This document shows, one piece after another, positions 18,573 to 34,646 of a stretch of 64,000 nt of DNA. This stretch comes from Gemmatimonadales bacterium. GTDB taxonomy: Bacteria; Gemmatimonadota; Gemmatimonadetes; Gemmatimonadales; GWC2-71-9. The DNA lies in contig DATNIM010000042.1 of the NCBI GenBank assembly GCA_035604455.1, forward strand, positions 33,444 to 97,443, read 5' to 3'. Under the pieces are notes generated by a model. It did no database searches. It was given only the letters and a program-made list of their open reading frames with translations, and was not told the DNA's origin. A program made the position numbers and the translations under genes. Position 1 is the stretch's first letter, and every line of letters begins with the position of its first letter.

Positions 18573-19907
18573 CTAGGAGGGGAGCGTCGCGGGGTCCGCT
18601 GTCTCGAGCGCGGCCGCTCTTGTGATCTCGCGTGTGATGTGCATGGAGCAGAACCGGGGCCCGCACATCGCGCAGAACTCGGCCGACTTGAAGTACTCGG
18701 CGGGCAGCGCCTCGTCGTGGAGCTCCTCGGCCCGGCCCGGGTCGAGGGCGAGGCGGAACTGCTCCCTCCAATCGAAAGCGAACCGCGCCCGCGAGAGAGC
18801 GTCGTCTCGGTCGCGCGATCCCGGGCGGCGGCGGCCGATGTCCGCCGCGTGGGCCGCGATCTTGTAGGCGATCACGCCTTCGCGCACCTCCTCGGCGTTC
18901 GGCAGGCCGAGGTGCTCCTTGCGGGTGACGTAGCACAGCATGTCGGCCCCATACCAGCCGATCATGGCGGCGCCGATCGCGGACGTGATGTGGTCGTAAC
19001 CCGGCGCGACGTCGGTCACGAGGGGCCCGAGCGTGTAGAAGGGCGCCTCGTGACAGAGCTCTTTCTCCAGGCGCACGTTCACCTCGATCTGGTGCAGGGG
19101 AATGTGCCCCGGGCCCTCGATCATGACCTGGACGTCCTTGGCCCAGGCGCGCTCGGTGAGCTCGCCCAGCGTGACGAGCTCGGCGAGCTGTGCCTTGTCG
19201 GTGGCATCGGCGATCGAACCCGGGCGCAGGCCGTCTCCGAGCGACAGCGTCACGTCATAGCGGCGGGCGATCTCGAGAATCCGGTCGAAGTGGGTGTAGA
19301 GCGGGTTCTCGCGCCCGTGGTGCATCATCCAGTAGGCAAGGAGCGAACCTCCACGCGAGACGATCCCCGTGACGCGCTGGAGCGCGAGCGCCACGTGCGC
19401 CCGCAGCAGCCCGCAGTGCACGGTGACGTAGTCCACGCCCTGGGCGGCCTGGTGCTCGATCATGTCCAACAGGTCGTCGGCAGTGAGCTCCTCGATGCGG
19501 TCGGTTCGCGCGACCGCCTGGTAGATGGGCACCGTGCCGATCGGCACCGGCGACGCCGCGATGATGGCGGTCCGGATGCAATCGATATCGCCGCCGGTCG
19601 AGAGGTCCATGACCGTGTCGGCCCCGTAGTGCACGGCGTGATGGAGCTTTTCGAGCTCGGCGTCGACGTTCGACTCGACCGCCGAGTTGCCGATGTTGGC
19701 GTTGATCTTGACTGAGGCGACGGCCCCGATCGCCATCGGGTCGAGGCGCTGGGCGAGGTGGCCCGTGTTCGCCGGGATCACGAGGCGGCCTCGCGCGACC
19801 TCGTCGCGGATCAATTCGGGGGTGAGCGACTCGCGTTCGGCCACTCGGCGCATCTCGGGCGTGATCACTCGAGCGCGGGCCGAGGCCATCTGCGTGGGGC
19901 AGGTCAT
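18573..19907 (-). CDS. thiC: Phosphomethylpyrimidine synthase
   Basis: Highly conserved ThiC sequence ([22 protein letters not shown]-like [14 protein letters not shown]). Start set at the MTCPTQ ATG (19907) because the upstream 26 codons of the listed ORF lie inside the riboswitch. Confidence 0.95.
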
Positions 19908-19910
19908 CTT

Positions 19911-19995
19911 GACTCCCTTCGCCGGTGCGAACCGGATCAGGTTCAAAGGGTGTGATCTCAGCCCCGCCCACCCGGGGCAGGGCACCCCTGTCTGT
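19911..19995 (-). promoter_or_regulatory. TPP (THI-box) riboswitch controlling thiC
   Basis: The minus strand reads GACAGGGGUGCCC...GGGGCUGAGAUCACACCCUUUGAACCUGAUCCGGUUCGCACCGGCGAAGGGAGUC. This matches the conserved GGGGUGC / CUGAGA / ACCCUUUGAACCUGAUC / AGGGA elements and ends 3 nt before the ATG. Confidence 0.92.
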
Positions 19996-20024
19996 ACCCG
20001 GCCAAGGTAACTGGGCCGTGCTCC

Positions 20025-27537: not shown

Positions 27538-28774
27538 GGTGGTCGCCGTCGTGCGCCGTGAGTTCGTCGAGCGCGTGCGGAGCCGGTGGTTCTGGATCTC
27601 CTCGGCTATCGTCCCCACGCTGTTCGGCGCCCTGCTCTTCCTGCCCGCGATGCTCGCCACGGGCGGCGCGGCCAAGCGCCTCGTCGTCGTCGATGCGACC
27701 GATTCGGGCCTTGGAGGGTCGCTGGCCGAGGCCTTGGGCGGAAGCGGCGTGTTTGTCGCCACGCGGATCCCTGCCGGAGCGGGCGTCGTCGACTCGCTCG
27801 TGCGCGAGGTCGGCGCAAAGCGGCTGGACGGCTTCGTCGTTCTGAGTGAAGACGCCATCGCCTCGGGCGATGTGCAGTACCGCGCGTCCAACGTGTCGTC
27901 GCTCCGCGACATCAGCGAGCTCGAGCGCGTGCTCTCACAGGTCATCACGGTCGCCCGCTTGAAGCGCGCGGGCATCGACCCGGCCATCATGGCGCGGGCC
28001 GAGCAAAGCATCCACCTCGAGACCGAGAAGATCTCGCGCTCGCGCACCACGGGCGAGAACGCCGCGCAGTCGTTCTCGCTCGCGTATTTCATGGGGATCA
28101 TCCTGTACACGGTGATCCTCATGTACGGCGTGAACGTGAAGAGCTCGGTGCTTGAAGAGAAGACGACCCGCATTGTCGAGGTGCTGGTGAGCTCGATCCG
28201 GCCGTTCCCGCTCCTGCTCGGGAAAGTGGTGGGCGTGGGCGCGGTCTCACTCCTGCAGCTCGTGCTGTGGGTGGTGCTCGGTCGGGCGCTGCTCGCGAGC
28301 CGCGGGCTCCACGGTCCCGAGCTGCTCGGTGGCGTATTTGAGGTGCCGCAGATCTCGGTCGCGACGGGCACGGTGTTCCTCGCGTACTTCCTGGGCGGCT
28401 TCTTCATCTATTCGGCGATGTTCGCGGCGGTGGGTGCCATCTCGTCGAGCGAGCAGGAGGCGCAGCAGGCCCAGCAGCCGATCGTCCTGATGCTCGTAGC
28501 CTCGTTCCTCTCGATGTTCGTGCTCTTGAACGATCCCGGCTCAAAGTTGTCGGTGGCGCTCTCGCTCGTGCCGTTCACGTCGCCCATCGCGATGCCCGTG
28601 CGTTGGGCGGCGGGCGATCTCCCGCCGGGCGAGGTCGCGGCCTCGCTCGCGCTCCTGGTGGCTGGGATCGTGGGCGTGACGTGGGTCGCGGCGCGCATCT
28701 ATCGCGTCGGGATTTTGATGACGGGCAAGCGCCCGGGTGTGCGCGAGCTCTGGCGCTGGGTGCGCGCGGGGTAA
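27530..28774 (+). CDS. ABC-2 type permease (NatB-like)
   Basis: The GTG at 27530 overlaps the ATPase stop. One N-terminal TM helix, a large extracytoplasmic loop, then five C-terminal TM helices. The listed 27362 start lies inside the ATPase gene and is rejected. Confidence 0.85.
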
Positions 28775-28826
28775 CGCGGTCGGAATCCCCCGCCCCGCTG
28801 GCGGAGTGGAGCGGGAGTGCGGTAGT

Positions 28827-30704
28827 ATGTCCCCCATGACTAGGGTCGTGGTCGTCGGCGCCGGGCATGCCGGGTGCGAAGCGGCGGTCGCCGCCGCGAG
28901 ACTCGGCGCTCGCGTGCTCCTCGTCACGTCGAACCTCGACACGATCGGTCACATGAGCTGCAACCCCGCGATCGGTGGCATCGCGAAGGGCACGCTCGTT
29001 CGGGAAATCGACGCGTTGGGCGGCCTCATGGGGCGCGCCGCCGACCGCGCCACGATTCAGTTCCGGATGTTGAACCGCTCGAAGGGTCCTGCCGTCTGGG
29101 CCCCGCGCGCCCAATGCGACCGCACCCTGTATCGGCGGGCGGTCCGCGTCCTGCTCGAGCGGTGGCCAGACTTGGCCATCACGCAAGGTCATGTGAAGCG
29201 GCTGCTCGTCGACGGTGGCGCGGTGCGCGGCGTCGAGCTCCTGGACGGCCGCCGCCTCGAGGCGGGCGCCGTGGTGCTCACCGCAGGGACATTTCTCCGT
29301 GGCTCGATTCACATCGGGACCGAGCTCCGGACGCCGGGCGGCCGGGCCGGGGATGCGCCGGCGGTGGCGATTGCAGAAGATGTTGAGGCTCTTGGACTTA
29401 CCGTGTCGCGCTTCAAAACGGGCACGCCCCCGCGGGTCGATGGCCGCACGGTCGACTGGACACAAGTTGAGCGCCAGGACGGCGAGGCCGGGGATTATCG
29501 GTTCTCGGTCTATGAGCGTGCAGAGCGCCTCCCTCAAGTCCCCTGTTGGCTCACGTGGGCGGGCGCCCCGGTGAAGGAGCTCGTGCACCGGCACCTGCAT
29601 CAATCCGCCATGTACGGCGGCGCCATCCACGCCCGCGGGCCCCGCTACTGCCCTTCGATCGAAGACAAGATCGTGAAGTTCCCCGAGGCCGAGCGCCATC
29701 AGGTGTTCCTCGAGCCCGAGGGTCTGGATACCCACGAGCTCTACGTGAACGGGCTCTCGACCTCGCTGCCGGTGAGCGTGCAGCTCGAGATGCTCGCCCT
29801 TGTCCCCGGACTCGAGGGCGCGCGGATGACGCGCCCCGGGTACGCGATCGAATACGACTACTACCCACCGACGCAGCTCACGCCGTGGCTCGAGACCAAG
29901 GCGGTTGAGCGGTTGTTTTTGGCGGGCCAGATCAACGGCACGACGGGTTACGAGGAGGCGGGAGCGCAGGGCCTGCTCGCCGGCCTCAACGCGGTCCGCC
30001 GTCTCGAGGACCGTGAGCCCGTCGTGCTCGGGCGCGACGACGCCTACATCGGGGTGCTGGCCGACGACCTGGTGACGCGTGGTGTCGACGAGCCGTATCG
30101 CCTGTTCACGTCGCGCGCCGAGTTCCGGCTGCTGCTGCGACAGGACAACGCACTGCGCCGGCTCCTGCCGCTGGCCGAGCGCGCGGGGCTCCTCTCGACT
30201 GAGGAACTGGCGACGGCCGAGCGCAGGCTCGGAGACGAAGAGCGCGTGCTCGCGCTCGCCCGGGAGACCGTACTCGACCCCGTTGCGGCTGAGGGCGCGG
30301 TAGGCCCGCTTCGGGCGCCCGAGTCAGTCAGCGTCCTCGCCCGTCGGCCCGGCGTCGGGCTGGGGGCCCTGTTCGCCGCGGCGCACGTCGAGCTCGACGT
30401 CTCGGGCGACGTACTCGCGGCGGCGGAGGTCGAGATCAAGTACGCCGGGTACCTGGCGCGAGAGCGTGAAGCAGCCGCGCGTCTCGCGGAGCTCGCCTCG
30501 TTCACGATCCCGCCCGAGCTTCCCTACCTCGCCTTGCACAGTCTCGCCACGGAAGCGCGCCACAAGCTCCACGGCATTCGCCCGACATCGCTCGCCCAGG
30601 CGGCGCGGATCCCCGGCGTGTCGCCGAGCGATCTGCACAACCTCGTCGCCGAGACATTGCGGTGGCGCCGCGGCCTAACACCCGCCCCTACAATGAATTC
30701 CTGA
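28827..30704 (+). CDS. mnmG: tRNA uridine 5-carboxymethylaminomethyl modification enzyme MnmG (GidA)
   Basis: Starts at [20 protein letters not shown] (FAD dinucleotide fold). Conserved [13 protein letters not shown] and [12 protein letters not shown]. Confidence 0.96.
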
Positions 30705-30716
30705 AGCACGAGGCTT

Positions 30717-30732
30717 TGTTTCACGTGAAACA
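30717..30732. other. parS centromere-like site 1 (TGTTTCACGTGAAACA, perfect 16-bp palindrome)
   Basis: Exact match to the canonical parS consensus TGTTNCACGTGAAACA. It lies 111 nt upstream of parA. Confidence 0.9.
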
Positions 30733-30740
30733 GGCTCCAG

Positions 30741-30756
30741 CGTTTCACGTGAAACG
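30741..30756. other. parS centromere-like site 2 (CGTTTCACGTGAAACG, perfect 16-bp palindrome)
   Basis: Same 14-bp core (GTTTCACGTGAAAC) as site 1, with a centre-to-centre distance of 24 bp. Confidence 0.85.
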
Positions 30757-30842
30757 CATGGCTTTCCCGAAGTTGTTCTAACTGCTATATTTACCGCTCA
30801 CCAGCGTTAGCTGCATAAGTTGTTGCGGCACAGTGAGTTGCC

Positions 30843-31658
30843 ATGTCACGCGTGATCGCGATCGCCAACCAGAAGGGCGGTGTCGGAAAAACGACGACCG
30901 CCGTGAACCTCGCCGCGTCGCTCGCCACGGCGGAGCGCCGCACGCTGCTCGTGGATGCGGATCCGCAGGCGAACACGACGAGCGGCGTCGGCATCGAACG
31001 CGATCGCGTGCGGCATTCGCTCTACGACGTGCTGCTCGAAGGGCGGGCGCTCGCGGACGTCCGGTTTCCCCACGTGCACTTCCCCTACCTCGACCTCGTG
31101 CCGGCGACGCAGGACCTGGTGGGCGCGGAGCTCGAGCTCGTCGGCCGACAGTCGCGCGAGCAGCTGATGCGGCGCGCGCTCGCGGGCCTGCGCGACCACT
31201 ACCAGTACGTCATCATCGATTGTCCCCCCTCGCTCGGGCTCGTGACGCTCAACATGCTCGCCGCGGCCGACAGCGTCCTGATCCCGATCCAGTGCGAATA
31301 CTACGCGCTCGAGGGACTGTCGCAGCTCTTGAACACGGTCAAGCTCGTGCAGCGCAACTTCAACCCCGCGCTCGCGATCGACGGGGTGCTGCTCACCATG
31401 TACGACGCGCGCCTGAACCTGTGCAAACAGGTGGCCGCGGAAGCCAAGGAGTACTTCGGGCCGCGCATGTTCGAGGTCTCGATCCCCCGCAACGTCCGGC
31501 TGGCGGAAGCCCCGAGCTTCGGCAAGCCGATCCTGTTGTACGACGTGCAGTCGGTCGGGGCGCGGAGCTACCTGGCCGTTGCCCAGGAGCTGATTCGTCG
31601 TGTTGAACACTCCCCCACCCCTGCCCCGCTCGCCACGCTCCCGGAGGTGCCCGCATGA
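30843..31658 (+). CDS. parA: Chromosome partitioning ATPase ParA/Soj
   Basis: Deviant Walker A ANQKGGVGKTTTAVNLA, and DCPPSLG. Confidence 0.95.
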   Translation: MSRVIAIANQKGGVGKTTTAVNLAASLATAERRTLLVDADPQANTTSGVGIERDRVRHSLYDVLLEGRALADVRFPHVHFPYLDLVPATQDLVGAELELVGRQSREQLMRRALAGLRDHYQYVIIDCPPSLGLVTLNMLAAADSVLIPIQCEYYALEGLSQLLNTVKLVQRNFNPALAIDGVLLTMYDARLNLCKQVAAEAKEYFGPRMFEVSIPRNVRLAEAPSFGKPILLYDVQSVGARSYLAVAQELIRRVEHSPTPAPLATLPEVPA

Positions 31659-32545
31659 CTGACGTCGGCGTTGGACGTCGCCGTCTCGGCCGCGGACTCG
31701 AAGCCCTGCTCGGCCCGACCCGCGAGGAAGCGGAGAAGGACGGCAGCTTGACCGAACTCGGGGTTCAGGAGATCCGGCCCAACCCCTTCCAGCCGCGCCG
31801 CACCGTGGACCCGACCGCGCTGGAGGAGCTCAAGGCATCGATCCGCCAGGCGGGGTTGCTGCAGCCCATCGTGGTCCGCCCGCTCCCGGACAACTCAGGC
31901 TACGAACTGATCGCCGGCGAGCGGAGATTGCGGGCCTGCGAGAGTCTGGGGTGGCAGCGGATCCCCGCCGTCACGCGCGCCGTCGACGACCGGACGGCGC
32001 TCACGCTGGCCCTGATCGAGAACCTGCAGCGCGACGATCTGTCGCCGGTCGACGAAGCCCGCGGGTATGAGCGGCTGATCGCCGAGTTCCAGCTGGCACA
32101 GCAGGACGTGGCCGACGCCGTGGGCCGCGATCGCTCGACCGTCACCAACGCGCTCCGCCTGCTCAAGCTGCCGCCCGCCGTGCTCGAGATGTTGCACGAG
32201 GGCGCGCTGTCGGTCGGGCACGCGCGGGCGCTGCTCGGGCTCGAGGATACGCGGCTCGTGACGACGCTCGCGCGCGAAGCGGCGGGGCAGGGGTTGTCGG
32301 TGCGCGAGGTCGAGGACCGAGTGCGGGGCGGACGCGCGCCGGAGAGGCGGCCGCGGATGAAGCGCGGGGTCGGCGCCGCACCTGAGGTCCGGCGGGTGGA
32401 GGACGCACTGCGGCGCCGGCTCGGGACCGACATCCGGGTCACGCTGCGCGGCAAGGGGAAGGGTCAGTTGCACATCGCGTTCTACTCGAACGACGACCTG
32501 GCCCGGTTGCTCGAGCTCATTCTCGGACGGCCGTTCGACGGATGA
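31655..32545 (+). CDS. parB: Chromosome partitioning protein ParB/Spo0J
   Basis: ParB box IRPNPFQPRR and LIAGERRLRA, with an HTH (QQDVADAVGRDRSTVTNALRLL). ATGA overlap with parA. Confidence 0.95.
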   Translation: MTDVGVGRRRLGRGLEALLGPTREEAEKDGSLTELGVQEIRPNPFQPRRTVDPTALEELKASIRQAGLLQPIVVRPLPDNSGYELIAGERRLRACESLGWQRIPAVTRAVDDRTALTLALIENLQRDDLSPVDEARGYERLIAEFQLAQQDVADAVGRDRSTVTNALRLLKLPPAVLEMLHEGALSVGHARALLGLEDTRLVTTLAREAAGQGLSVREVEDRVRGGRAPERRPRMKRGVGAAPEVRRVEDALRRRLGTDIRVTLRGKGKGQLHIAFYSNDDLARLLELILGRPFDG

Positions 32546-33330
32546 GCGGGCGCCGCGTCACGGTCGTCATCCACGTGGACGGCGATCTCGCGTCCCGTCA
32601 GTATCGGCTGCCGTTGTGGGTCTTCGACGTGGGACGCTGGGGCGCGGTCGTGGTCGTCCTCTTGGTCGTGTTGTTCTTCGCGTTCGCCGAACCGCTCGCG
32701 CAGGCCGCGGCCCGGGTGCCGGGGCTCGAGCGGGAGGTGGCGCGCTTGGACGAGGAGAACGCGCGCGTCGCGCGCCTCGCGACCGAGCTCAACCACGCCG
32801 AGGCGCACTACCAGGAGCTCCGCGACCTGCTGAGTCCGCGGGCGCCGACGGCGCCGCTCCCTGGGCCCGAGCCGATGCGAGCGCCGCCCGTGGTCGCGAG
32901 CCCCGTGGTGTCGCCGCCCCGCTACGAGACGGGTCCGTCCGCGCCCACGCACTGGCCGCTCGCCGTGGCCGGGTTTGTCACCCGAGGCCAGGTCGCCCGT
33001 CCTGATTCCGGGGGTGAAACGCACGCCGGCATCGACATCGCCGTCCCGCTCGGGTCGGCGGTGCGTGCGGCGGGCGGGGGGCTCGTGGAAACGGCGGGCA
33101 TGGACTCAGCCTACGGGCTGTACGTGCTGGTGCGTCATCCCAACGGCTACGAAACGCTCTACGGCCATGCGTCCCGCTTGCTCGTGCATGATGGCGATTC
33201 GGTGACGGCGGGGCAGGTCATCGCTCTCTCCGGCAACTCGGGCCGCTCGACCGCGCCGCATTTGCATTTCGAAATCAGGCGCGATGGCGCCGCGATCGAT
33301 CCGCTCACCCTCGTGGCGCAGGAGAACTGA
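32542..33330 (+). CDS. Membrane-anchored M23 (LytM-type) peptidoglycan endopeptidase
   Basis: N-terminal TM helix, a coiled coil (EREVARLDEENARVARL), then an M23 domain with intact ligands (HAGIDIA...HLHFEI). ATGA overlap with parB. Confidence 0.88.
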   Translation: MSGRRVTVVIHVDGDLASRQYRLPLWVFDVGRWGAVVVVLLVVLFFAFAEPLAQAAARVPGLEREVARLDEENARVARLATELNHAEAHYQELRDLLSPRAPTAPLPGPEPMRAPPVVASPVVSPPRYETGPSAPTHWPLAVAGFVTRGQVARPDSGGETHAGIDIAVPLGSAVRAAGGGLVETAGMDSAYGLYVLVRHPNGYETLYGHASRLLVHDGDSVTAGQVIALSGNSGRSTAPHLHFEIRRDGAAIDPLTLVAQEN

Positions 33331-33331
33331 C

Positions 33332-33733
33332 ATGGCGGTCTTTACCGAGAAGGGGCAGCGCACAGACTCGGAATCGACGCTCTCGATCATCGGCACCGGC
33401 ATGCGGGTGGTCGGCGACATCACGGCCGACGGCGTCGTGAAGATCGAGGGCACGGTCGTGGGTACCGTTCGAGCGGGCCGGCAAGTACTCGTGGCCAAGG
33501 GCGGGGAGGTGGAGGGCGACGTGATCGCCAAGGAGGCGATTATCGGCGGCGAGGTGCGCGGGACGGTGGTCGCCCAGGAGCGGGCCGAGATCCAGAGCTC
33601 GAGCGTCATCCACGGGGATGTCACGTGCAAGCGATTGCTCGTTCAGGAGGGCGGGGAGATCAACGGGGTCGTCCGCATGGGCGAAACCGCCACCGACAGC
33701 CGCGAGGATGGGGCTCCCGCCAAGGTTTTCTAG
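33332..33733 (+). CDS. Bactofilin (DUF583 polymer-forming cytoskeletal protein)
   Basis: Starts at MAVFTEK, 1 nt after the M23 stop. Repetitive beta-helix pattern (GTVVGTV...GEVEGDVIAKEAIIGGEVRGTVVAQERAEIQSSSVIHGDVTCKRLLVQEGGEINGVV). Confidence 0.88.
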   Translation: MAVFTEKGQRTDSESTLSIIGTGMRVVGDITADGVVKIEGTVVGTVRAGRQVLVAKGGEVEGDVIAKEAIIGGEVRGTVVAQERAEIQSSSVIHGDVTCKRLLVQEGGEINGVVRMGETATDSREDGAPAKVF

Positions 33734-33746
33734 CCACCGTTGCGGA

Positions 33747-33829
33747 TTATCCACACAATCATGTTTCGCGGATGTGGATTGTCTAACGTCCATGCTGACA
33801 AGCAATTAGACGATCGTACGTGTGGACAA
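33747..33829. other. Cluster of three DnaA boxes in an AT-rich spacer
   Basis: TTATCCACA (33747-33755, perfect). ATGTGGATT (33772-33780), which is AATCCACAT on the other strand. TGTGGACAA (33821-33829), which is TTGTCCACA, one mismatch. By hand count the 33734-33884 spacer is about 45% G+C. Confidence 0.6.
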
Positions 33830-33884
33830 ACCTATGGCGATGCCATGAAACTGTCGTTTTAGTGTCTAGATAGTGTTCTAACTA

Positions 33885-34646
33885 GTGGGCACCATGATTC
33901 TGACCGAGCTGGTCACATACCTCGATCAGTACCTTCGCCTGTCGGACGTGGGCGACGCCCCAGCTGCCTGGAACGGCCTGCAAGTCGAAAACAGCGGTGC
34001 GGTCGAGCGCCTTGGGGCGGCGGTCGACGCTTGCGAACGGACGATCGCGCTGGCTGCCGAGGCGCGCGTGGGCCTGCTCCTCGTCCACCACGGTCTCTTC
34101 TGGGACGGCCTGCCGCCCGTGCGCGGACCCCGATACCGGCGGCTCGCGGGACTGATCCGCCACGACATCGCGCTCTATAGCGCGCACCTGCCGCTCGATG
34201 CGCATCCGGAGGTGGGGAACAACGTGCTCCTCGCACGCGAGCTCGGCCTCGTCGTGCGCGGCCCCTTCGGGACGTTCTATGGCGGCGCCGCGGGCGTCTG
34301 GGGCGACCTGGTACTCTCGCGTGACGCGCTCGCGGCGCGGCTCGCTCGCGTGCTCGGCGCGCCTCCGCGCGTGCTCGCGTGCGGTCCCGAGGAGACGCGC
34401 CGCGTGGGCATCGTCACCGGGGCAGGGGGCTCGGCGATTGCGGAGGCAGCCGCGGCGGGACTCGACACGTTGGTCACGGGTGAGGGCGCGCACCACACCT
34501 TCTTCGCCGCCGAAGAGCTCGGCGTCAACGCTTTCTACGGGGGGCATTACGCGACCGAAACGCTCGGCGTCAAAGCCCTGAGCGCCCATCTCGCCGCCCG
34601 TTTTGGAATTCCCTGGACCTTCCTCGACCACCCGACCGGTCTTTAG
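33885..34646 (+). CDS. Nif3-like dinuclear-metal-centre protein (GTP cyclohydrolase I type 2 family)
   Basis: ILTELVTYLDQYL...NGLQVE...LLLVHHGLFW...YSAHLPLDAHPEVGNN...GGHYATE. The start is either GTG 33885 or ATG 33894. Confidence 0.85.
   Translation: MGTMILTELVTYLDQYLRLSDVGDAPAAWNGLQVENSGAVERLGAAVDACERTIALAAEARVGLLLVHHGLFWDGLPPVRGPRYRRLAGLIRHDIALYSAHLPLDAHPEVGNNVLLARELGLVVRGPFGTFYGGAAGVWGDLVLSRDALAARLARVLGAPPRVLACGPEETRRVGIVTGAGGSAIAEAAAAGLDTLVTGEGAHHTFFAAEELGVNAFYGGHYATETLGVKALSAHLAARFGIPWTFLDHPTGL

Follow-up and report, generated by a model that had tools for sequence, protein, structure and literature searches.

We analyzed a 64,000-nucleotide stretch of a Gemmatimonadales metagenome-assembled genome (MAG), hereafter the window, in which the chromosome segregation genes parA and parB are followed by genes for an M23 peptidase and a bactofilin. 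All four genes lie head to tail on one strand, as read directly from the sequence and from the list of open reading frames (ORFs). A first-pass annotation of the same DNA had named the four products and located their junctions, and both readings were borne out, the identities by Pfam and the junctions to the nucleotide. The linkage of the four genes hints at, without proving, a tie between chromosome segregation and local cell wall remodeling.

The parA gene (30843..31658, plus strand) encodes a protein of 271 amino acids that matches AAA_31 (2.4e-64) and also CbiA, ParA, and MipZ in Pfam. It is a Soj-type ParA with the deviant Walker A motif NQKGGVGKTT at residues 9 to 18. The product of parB (31655..32545, plus strand; 296 amino acids) harbors the domains ParB_N (1.7e-32), HTH_ParB (1.8e-33), and ParB_C (2.8e-9), the N-terminal sequence LGRGLEALL, and the cytidine triphosphate-binding motif GERRxRA, present as IAGERRLRA. 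The third gene (32542..33330, plus strand) encodes a putative LmdC-like M23 DD-metalloendopeptidase of 262 amino acids, residues 160 to 254 of which match Peptidase_M23 (PF01551; 1.7e-32), and the fourth (33332..33733, plus strand) encodes a bactofilin of 133 amino acids with PF04519/DUF583 at residues 18 to 114 (1.1e-22). The sequence of the M23 protein agrees at 100% identity with that of an NCBI protein labeled Gemmatimonadales bacterium.

The parB start overlaps the parA stop in an ATGA at 31655-31658, and the M23 start overlaps the parB stop in a second ATGA at 32542-32545. Between the stop codon of the M23 gene (TGA, 33328-33330) and the bactofilin ATG at 33332 there is a single base, 33331. 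The bactofilin ORF is listed from an in-frame ATG at 33284, within the M23 gene; relatives keep the start at 33332. When the genes of the window were roughly mapped, tight junctions of -8 to +5 nucleotides (nt) were possible in 4 of the 21 other same-strand neighbor pairs, and a single further -4 overlap occurs among these pairs. Given this base rate, three consecutive tight junctions are not the default in the window, though they are typical of operons.

Two parS matches, the perfect site TGTTTCACGTGAAACA (30717..30732) and CGTTTCACGTGAAACG (30741..30756), were found 87 to 126 nt upstream of parA. No others occur in the 64 kb, where 0.06 matches would be expected, and in 67 of 71 related loci at least one parS is present no more than 250 nt upstream of parA. 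This conserved position suggests that ParB autoregulates the four-gene unit. The pair sits just 5' of parA with the presumed promoter in between, so that the loading of ParB could plausibly exert feedback on the entire unit. Judged from its layout, the locus forms an origin-proximal four-gene expression unit in the order parS-parS-promoter-parA-parB-M23-bactofilin, whose genes are probably co-transcribed.

Conservation of gene order, junctions, and translation signals

The first-pass annotation had proposed to survey the four-gene order across the phylum. A ParB scan over one genome per GTDB species yielded 80 loci, all from Gemmatimonadota and with a ParB identity of 58 to 84%, in which gene order was read by tblastn with six proteins of the window. 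Four loci end too early to be judged, and the order mnmG-parA-parB-M23-bactofilin-nif3 was found in 69 of the 76 informative ones, among them a locus of an uncultured Gemmatimonas sp. (L074). ParA identity to the window protein was 58 to 89% in related loci. The arrangement is therefore not limited to a single genome.

The junctions are conserved as well. The distance between parA and parB was -4 in 76 of 78 loci, and that between parB and the M23 gene was -4 (ATGA) in all 69 loci, down to a ParB identity of 58%. M23 and bactofilin genes were adjacent in 67/67 loci and separated by -1 to +2 nt in 66 of these. The exception (L009, 6882-8236) has a junction of -112 and a truncated M23 match, and in one further locus (L044) the bactofilin ORF, at 174 amino acids, is unusually long; both oddities are probably assembly or frameshift artefacts of those MAGs.

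M23 and bactofilin were absent at parB in the remaining seven loci, all from a more distant group. There, parB is followed directly by nif3 (L058, L060, and L066), by a Bmp lipoprotein gene and then nif3 (L069 and L072), or by other genes (L059 and L080). These Gemmatimonadales loci nevertheless keep parS, parA, and parB, indicating that the M23-bactofilin pair is not needed in cis by ParABS. Since the two genes were either both present or both missing in every informative locus, they behave as a two-gene cassette.

We also searched 1.84 billion cluster representatives with a profile of the M23 protein. Among the best 150 matches, about 30 were full-length proteins (250 to 290 amino acids) of the same architecture. 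The neighborhoods of ten distant homologs, with approximately 28 to 48% identity to the window protein, were read from independent gene calls and precomputed Pfam matches, and all ten showed the order ParA-ParB-M23-Bactofilin. The only labels obtained among these loci were Gemmatimonadota, Gemmatimonadales, and Candidatus Krumholzibacteria, the last for a protein of NCBI assembly GCA_026387805.1, so that the count of at least two phyla is a lower bound. Upstream of the four genes we found YidC/DCD, dnaA-rpmH-yidD-yidC, mnmE-mnmG-rsmG with a beta-helix protein, or elongation factor P with a 2-oxoacid oxidoreductase; downstream, ATP synthase epsilon, leuS with proteins carrying type IX secretion system tails, HSP20, acetyl-CoA synthetase, or NIF3. 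The flanking genes of the ten loci are unrelated, and only the four-gene core is constant. The core itself is thus the conserved unit and is older than the phylum, and the first-pass annotation, which had placed the link between segregation and wall remodeling "in this lineage," drew the circle too narrowly. The arrangement with mnmE-mnmG-rsmG and a beta-helix protein ahead of parA was that of the Krumholzibacteria-type loci (L085 and L087).

On the evidence of gene order, the four genes form an ancient unit on which selection acts as a whole, and which is retained by most Gemmatimonadales and by distant lineages. Its junctions are looser in the latter, where parB and M23 were separated by -4 to +149 nt and M23 and bactofilin by +5 to +67 nt. 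The seven distant loci for which DNA was analyzed have a guanine-plus-cytosine content of 48 to 68% and a ParB identity to the window of 44 to 51%.

The four genes differ in their translation signals. Strong Shine-Dalgarno (SD) sites precede parB (GGAGG, 31643..31647, plus strand; duplex free energy, -10.8 kcal/mol) and the bactofilin gene (AGGAG, 33320..33324, plus strand), and strong sites are kept at these positions in 97% of 78 loci and 93% of 68 loci, respectively. Ahead of the M23 start (32520-32545 in the window, and the same region of related loci), no SD site was found in 94% of the loci. Across the Gemmatimonadales loci, the median energy of the anti-SD duplex was -10.8 kcal/mol for parB, -3.55 kcal/mol for M23, and -11.7 kcal/mol for bactofilin. 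The M23 ATG is locked onto the parB stop, and the sequence of the ParB C terminus and the junction, ending in TTCGACGGATGA, is near-invariant across loci.

Termination-reinitiation at overlapping stop and start codons is an established phenomenon. Given the lack of an SD site and the invariant overlap with parB, the ribosomes that translate M23 are most likely those that have just completed parB, and such reinitiation would keep the output of the peptidase low and strictly dependent on the translation of ParB. The first-pass annotation had taken the whole operon for translationally coupled, with obligatory co-expression. This claim stands for the step from parB to M23 but not for parB and bactofilin, whose own strong SD sites make coupling there non-obligatory. 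Because the junctions open up outside Gemmatimonadales, strict coupling of translation is confined to certain lineages, and the others could have separate promoters.

For the window itself, a scan of the plus strand from 30400 to 34200, restricted to sigma-70 consensus sites, found no promoter-like site. No credible terminator was found within the four-gene string either, its sole terminator-like match lying in the transmembrane-coding part of the M23 gene and within shuffle expectation. These data bear on the view that the string is not one operon, that promoters within the coding sequence of parB or M23 drive M23, bactofilin, or both, and that the overlaps reflect compaction. Such a view is in line with the bactofilin gene having a strong SD site of its own and with the gaps of 56 to 149 nt between parB and M23 in some distant lineages, which could hold a promoter, and the limitation of our scan to sigma-70 consensus sites leaves it some room. 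However, the window offers no intergenic space to house such promoters, neither a promoter nor a terminator was detected in the string, and an SD-less M23 gene begins with an ATG that overlaps the parB stop in 69/69 loci. We consider separate transcription very unlikely.

A conserved linkage could still be a historical one. An ordinary shape or envelope module may have lodged in the parAB unit and may act independently of segregation; co-expression would then be real but would mean only housekeeping expression near the origin. This would be in keeping with mnmG and rsmG, classic parAB neighbors without a known role in segregation, and with the seven relatives that have parAB without the pair. 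In some Gemmatimonas-like relatives, moreover, the tight same-strand array runs past bactofilin into genes for the Bmp lipoprotein, NIF3, an ABC ATPase, and two permeases (L081, 6810-12517, and L082), the gaps measuring between -25 and +8 nt and mostly between -4 and +8 nt. Since this array also joins unrelated functions, packing alone is no sign of a shared function. The LmdC-BacA pairs of Hyphomonas and Rhodospirillum, for their part, form separate two-gene operons of their own (PMC10945521).

A parallel for a hitchhiking module is BacM. In Myxococcus xanthus, bacM is the gene that directly follows parAB, but deleting it leaves the localization of ParA and ParB unchanged; the ParABS scaffold of this organism consists of BacNOP with PadC (PMC5703909). 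The first-pass annotation had invoked Myxococcus as a precedent in which bactofilins scaffold ParABS and bacM adjoins parAB. The position of bacM was correctly given, but the scaffold is made by other bactofilins, and the precedent argues instead that adjacency need not mean function. Hitchhiking nevertheless has to account for two observations, namely that the four-gene core alone persisted while both flanks were swapped in 10/10 distant lineages and that the SD-less overlap of parB and M23 was retained in every one of the 69 loci. Flank replacement together with an invariant overlap would be hard to maintain without selection on the linkage, which counts against a purely historical association. 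We regard it as unlikely.

The peptidase, the bactofilin, and a possible tie to segregation

The peptidase is predicted to have the architecture of LmdC, with a cytoplasmic hairpin, a transmembrane helix, a coiled coil, and an intact zinc site. The first three of these, and a linker and the M23 fold, appeared in an AF2 model built on our diverse alignment A3, with a mean predicted local distance difference test (pLDDT) score of 87.5. The predicted cytoplasmic beta-hairpin covers residues 5 to 24 (VTVVIH...RQYRLP; 32554..32613, plus strand), its strands being residues 5 to 10 (VTVVIH) and 19 to 24 (RQYRLP), with pLDDT scores of 78 to 86. It is followed by the single predicted transmembrane helix of the protein (residues 25 to 57; 32614..32712, plus strand; pLDDT, >90), which contains the hydrophobic stretch WGAVVVVLLVVLFFAFA, by a predicted periplasmic coiled-coil helix (residues 59 to 97; 32716..32832, plus strand), and by a proline-rich disordered linker (residues 98 to 138). 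The catalytic domain, delimited by PF01551 and invariant columns, comprises residues 139 to 262 (32956..33327, plus strand).

The hairpin motif consists of a hydrophobic-T-hydrophobic run, a P/H-H/D-G/D turn, and R-x-hydrophobic-R; it is kept down to 28% identity, and its R19 is nearly invariant. The zinc and catalytic residues are all present, H161 and D165 forming HxxxD, H240 and H242 forming HxH, and H209 standing between them, and the five are invariant in alignments A1, A2, and A3 and across 61 homologs that likewise reach down to 28% identity. This is in good agreement with the earlier description of the peptidase as membrane anchored and catalytically intact. A Foldseek search of the PDB with the M23 domain returned ShyA, EnpA, and Csd1 as best matches; LytM structures also match, and all of these are generic M23 domains.

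The bactofilin domain matches Caulobacter crescentus BacA (2N3D; 1.7e-10) and the Thermus thermophilus bactofilin (6RIA; 7e-8). Its N terminus reads MAVFTEK in the window and is kept among 63 orthologs as MA(V/I/M)F(T/S)EK, changing to MG(I/F)FSN in the more distant relatives. The membrane-targeting consensus of bactofilins is MFSKKKK (PMC12448750), and the two are similar without being identical, the phenylalanine and a hydroxyl residue being retained. MAVFTEK is thus a possible membrane-targeting peptide. The C-terminal tails of the bactofilins are poorly conserved.

Taking these observations together, we favor, with moderate confidence, a co-expressed parAB-M23-bactofilin unit in which the bactofilin guides the peptidase and which is linked to the segregation of the origin. 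In such a unit, a promoter between the parS pair and parA would drive all four genes as one transcript, and parS-loaded ParB would feed back on the whole. While parB and bactofilin would use their own strong SD sites, M23 would be made by ribosomes that stop at the end of parB and restart at the overlapping ATG, and its synthesis would hence stand in a low, fixed ratio to that of ParB and be impossible without it. The further steps follow the LmdC-BacA paradigm, in which the cytoplasmic beta-hairpin of LmdC is the determinant for BacA binding (PMC10945521). The bactofilin would polymerize at the cytoplasmic face of the membrane via its N-terminal MAVFTEK and would bind the cytoplasmic beta-hairpin of the bitopic peptidase, and this binding would determine the sites at which the M23 domain, in the periplasm, cleaves the cross-links of peptidoglycan. 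Guidance of the peptidase by the bactofilin may be expected by analogy. The most speculative step is the last one, in which the linkage to parAB would tie to the segregation of the origin how much and when, and possibly where, the wall is remodeled. In favor of a functional tie, the core has survived the turnover of both flanks, and the overlap of parB and M23 is invariant across more than 40% ParB divergence.

Several points weigh against this reading. Its initial steps, co-transcription and reinitiation, are deduced from sequence. In the bactofilin N terminus, a glutamate stands where the MFSKKKK consensus has a lysine, and the N-terminal strands of the peptidase did not appear when the model was built on the shallow alignment A2 (62 to 83% identity; mean pLDDT, 72.6). 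The seven Gemmatimonadales loci mentioned above retain parS-parA-parB without the pair, Gemmatimonas-like relatives extend the tight array beyond bactofilin, and outside Gemmatimonadales the junctions widen to +2 to +149 nt. Finally, BacM, although encoded beside parAB in M. xanthus, plays no role in the positioning of ParA or ParB (PMC5703909).

The coupling could also be physical. A polar or subpolar patch of bactofilin may tether ParB-parS or ParA and recruit the M23 peptidase, so that the segregated origin would mark the place of remodeling, for example, for pole maturation, for spherical polar appendages, or for future division sites. Elsewhere, the tethering of ParB-parS or ParA is the job of BacNOP-PadC, PopZ, or HubP. 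Such a scaffold would fit with the conservation of the four-gene unit across phyla and with the bactofilins of M. xanthus that do scaffold ParABS. It would also suit the cell biology of Gemmatimonadota, which are reported to undergo FtsZ-based fission at 1/2, 1/3, or 1/4 of the cell length, to lack Min, MipZ, PomZ, MapZ, and SsgAB, and to form unexplained spherical polar appendages formerly taken for buds (PMC11271474; bactofilins and M23 peptidases go unmentioned there). Furthermore, the bactofilins of Borrelia, encoded next to an M23 gene, organize zonal peptidoglycan insertion at 1/2, 1/4, and 3/4 (PMC13393453). On the other hand, the binding of this bactofilin to ParB or ParA is conjectured by analogy, its C-terminal tail belongs to the poorly conserved part of the family, and relatives without the pair still have parAB. 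Moreover, no PadC-like gene that could supply an adaptor was seen among the ORFs and Pfam matches of the four-gene cluster. A direct scaffold appears improbable to us.

Extending our preferred reading in this direction, the bactofilin of the parAB operon might be a landmark that is physically tied to segregated ParB-parS and steers reinitiation-limited M23 cleavage to origin-set sites in Gemmatimonadota, Krumholzibacteriota, and related lineages. We put this forward as a doubtful proposition, and any temporal, quantitative, or spatial coupling between wall remodeling and origin segregation is speculative. If true, it would amount to ParABS-coupled morphogenesis of poles, appendages, or division sites in phyla without Min, MipZ, PomZ, and similar systems. 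In any case, the unit provides a concrete, testable hypothesis that ties wall remodeling to the chromosome cycle. The cell biology of the group in question has hardly been explored; cultured members exist, and the known systems for positioning the division site are all missing (PMC11271474).

Surroundings of the unit and comparison with known systems

Upstream of the unit lies mnmG, listed as an ORF at 28737-30704. The listed ORF is too long, starting about 30 codons ahead of the GIDA domain (28737-28840). In the window (30705-30842), as in the Gemmatimonadales relatives, rsmG (gidB) is missing between mnmG and parA. Downstream, the unit ends in a low-GC spacer of 151 nt (33734..33884), followed by the NIF3-family gene nif3 (33885-34646). 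The spacer harbors DnaA boxes at 33747-33755 and 33821-33829, and a DnaA box is kept in 40 of 44 related bactofilin-nif3 spacers, compared to a background of 0.09 per kb. This region may belong to oriC or may serve as a nif3 promoter under the control of DnaA; no dnaA gene was found in the 64-kb window. The scan detected no terminator after bactofilin, nor does the spacer stand out by its RNA fold (z = -0.76). We also considered the repeated sequence GTTCTAACT, which occurs 5' of both parA and nif3, as a shared promoter element and rejected it, its occurrence being within chance in the window and the repeat being absent from relatives. Elsewhere in the window, a thiamine pyrophosphate riboswitch (Rfam RF00059; 64.2 bits) was detected at 19897-19999 on the minus strand, at the 5' end of a gene at 18573-19985.

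With respect to its first half, the unit resembles the canonical origin-proximal arrangement mnmG-(rsmG)-parA-parB, with mnmG upstream, parS by parA, a Soj-type ParA, and a ParB with the GERRxRA motif. It departs from this arrangement in that rsmG is missing and two extra genes follow downstream at conserved junctions.

As for the second half, paired bactofilin and M23 genes are already established as a morphogenetic module (PMC10945521, PMC9507126), as the first-pass annotation had rightly noted. The adjacency of the two genes has been published for 226 species, in a list without Gemmatimonadota (PMC10945521). The window pair is most similar in design to LmdC-BacA of Hyphomonas neptunium and Rhodospirillum rubrum, in which a bitopic M23 DD-endopeptidase with a beta-hairpin, one transmembrane helix, a coiled coil, and a complete zinc site is likewise encoded directly next to the bactofilin. 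This likeness is one of architecture, predicted here, and the window peptidase is smaller than LmdC, with 262 amino acids and one coiled-coil helix instead of three coiled-coil regions. Unlike LmdC-BacA, the pair sits inside a parAB unit, with the M23 start overlapping the parB stop.

Similarly, M23 genes lie next to the bactofilin gene in the Csd1/Csd2-CcmA cell shape module of Helicobacter pylori (PMC9507126), and the structure of Csd1 was among the best fold matches to the window M23 domain. In Borrelia burgdorferi, the M23 gene lies beside the bactofilin gene in BB0246-BbbG, which organizes peptidoglycan insertion (PMC13393453). In contrast to the window, neither module has been reported to be linked to parAB, and their partners (Csd5, Csd7, and MurF) differ (PMC9507126, PMC13393453). 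In Leptospira interrogans, an M23-bactofilin pair is located at 4,258,056-4,259,422 of the approximately 4.28-Mb chromosome I (source data of PMC10945521), and parAB (LIMLP_17770/17775) is in the same region (PMC11442865); this may be a further parAB-linked case, in a different phylum.

The parAB-bacM locus of Myxococcus shares with the window a bactofilin gene downstream of parAB, in an organism where bactofilins (BacNOP) can position ParB-parS and ParA. It differs in that no M23 gene has been reported between parB and bacM and in that the scaffold of ParABS is encoded elsewhere, by bacNOP-padC. If the linkage described here were merely historical, it would constitute a second cautionary case beside that of bacM.

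The literature searched contained neither a parAB-M23-bactofilin unit nor a report linking Gemmatimonadota with bactofilins. The M23-bactofilin module and the adjacency of parAB and bacM in Myxococcus were already known, while the joined, cross-phylum four-gene unit appears to be new relative to that literature. Overall, the two halves of the unit have been known separately, ParABS as the system that segregates origins and bactofilin-LmdC modules as the one that places peptidoglycan hydrolysis. What is added here is their fixed genetic joining, which has outlasted the replacement of neighboring genes across at least two phyla and in which, within Gemmatimonadales, the design of the junction would make the synthesis of the peptidase depend on the translation of ParB.

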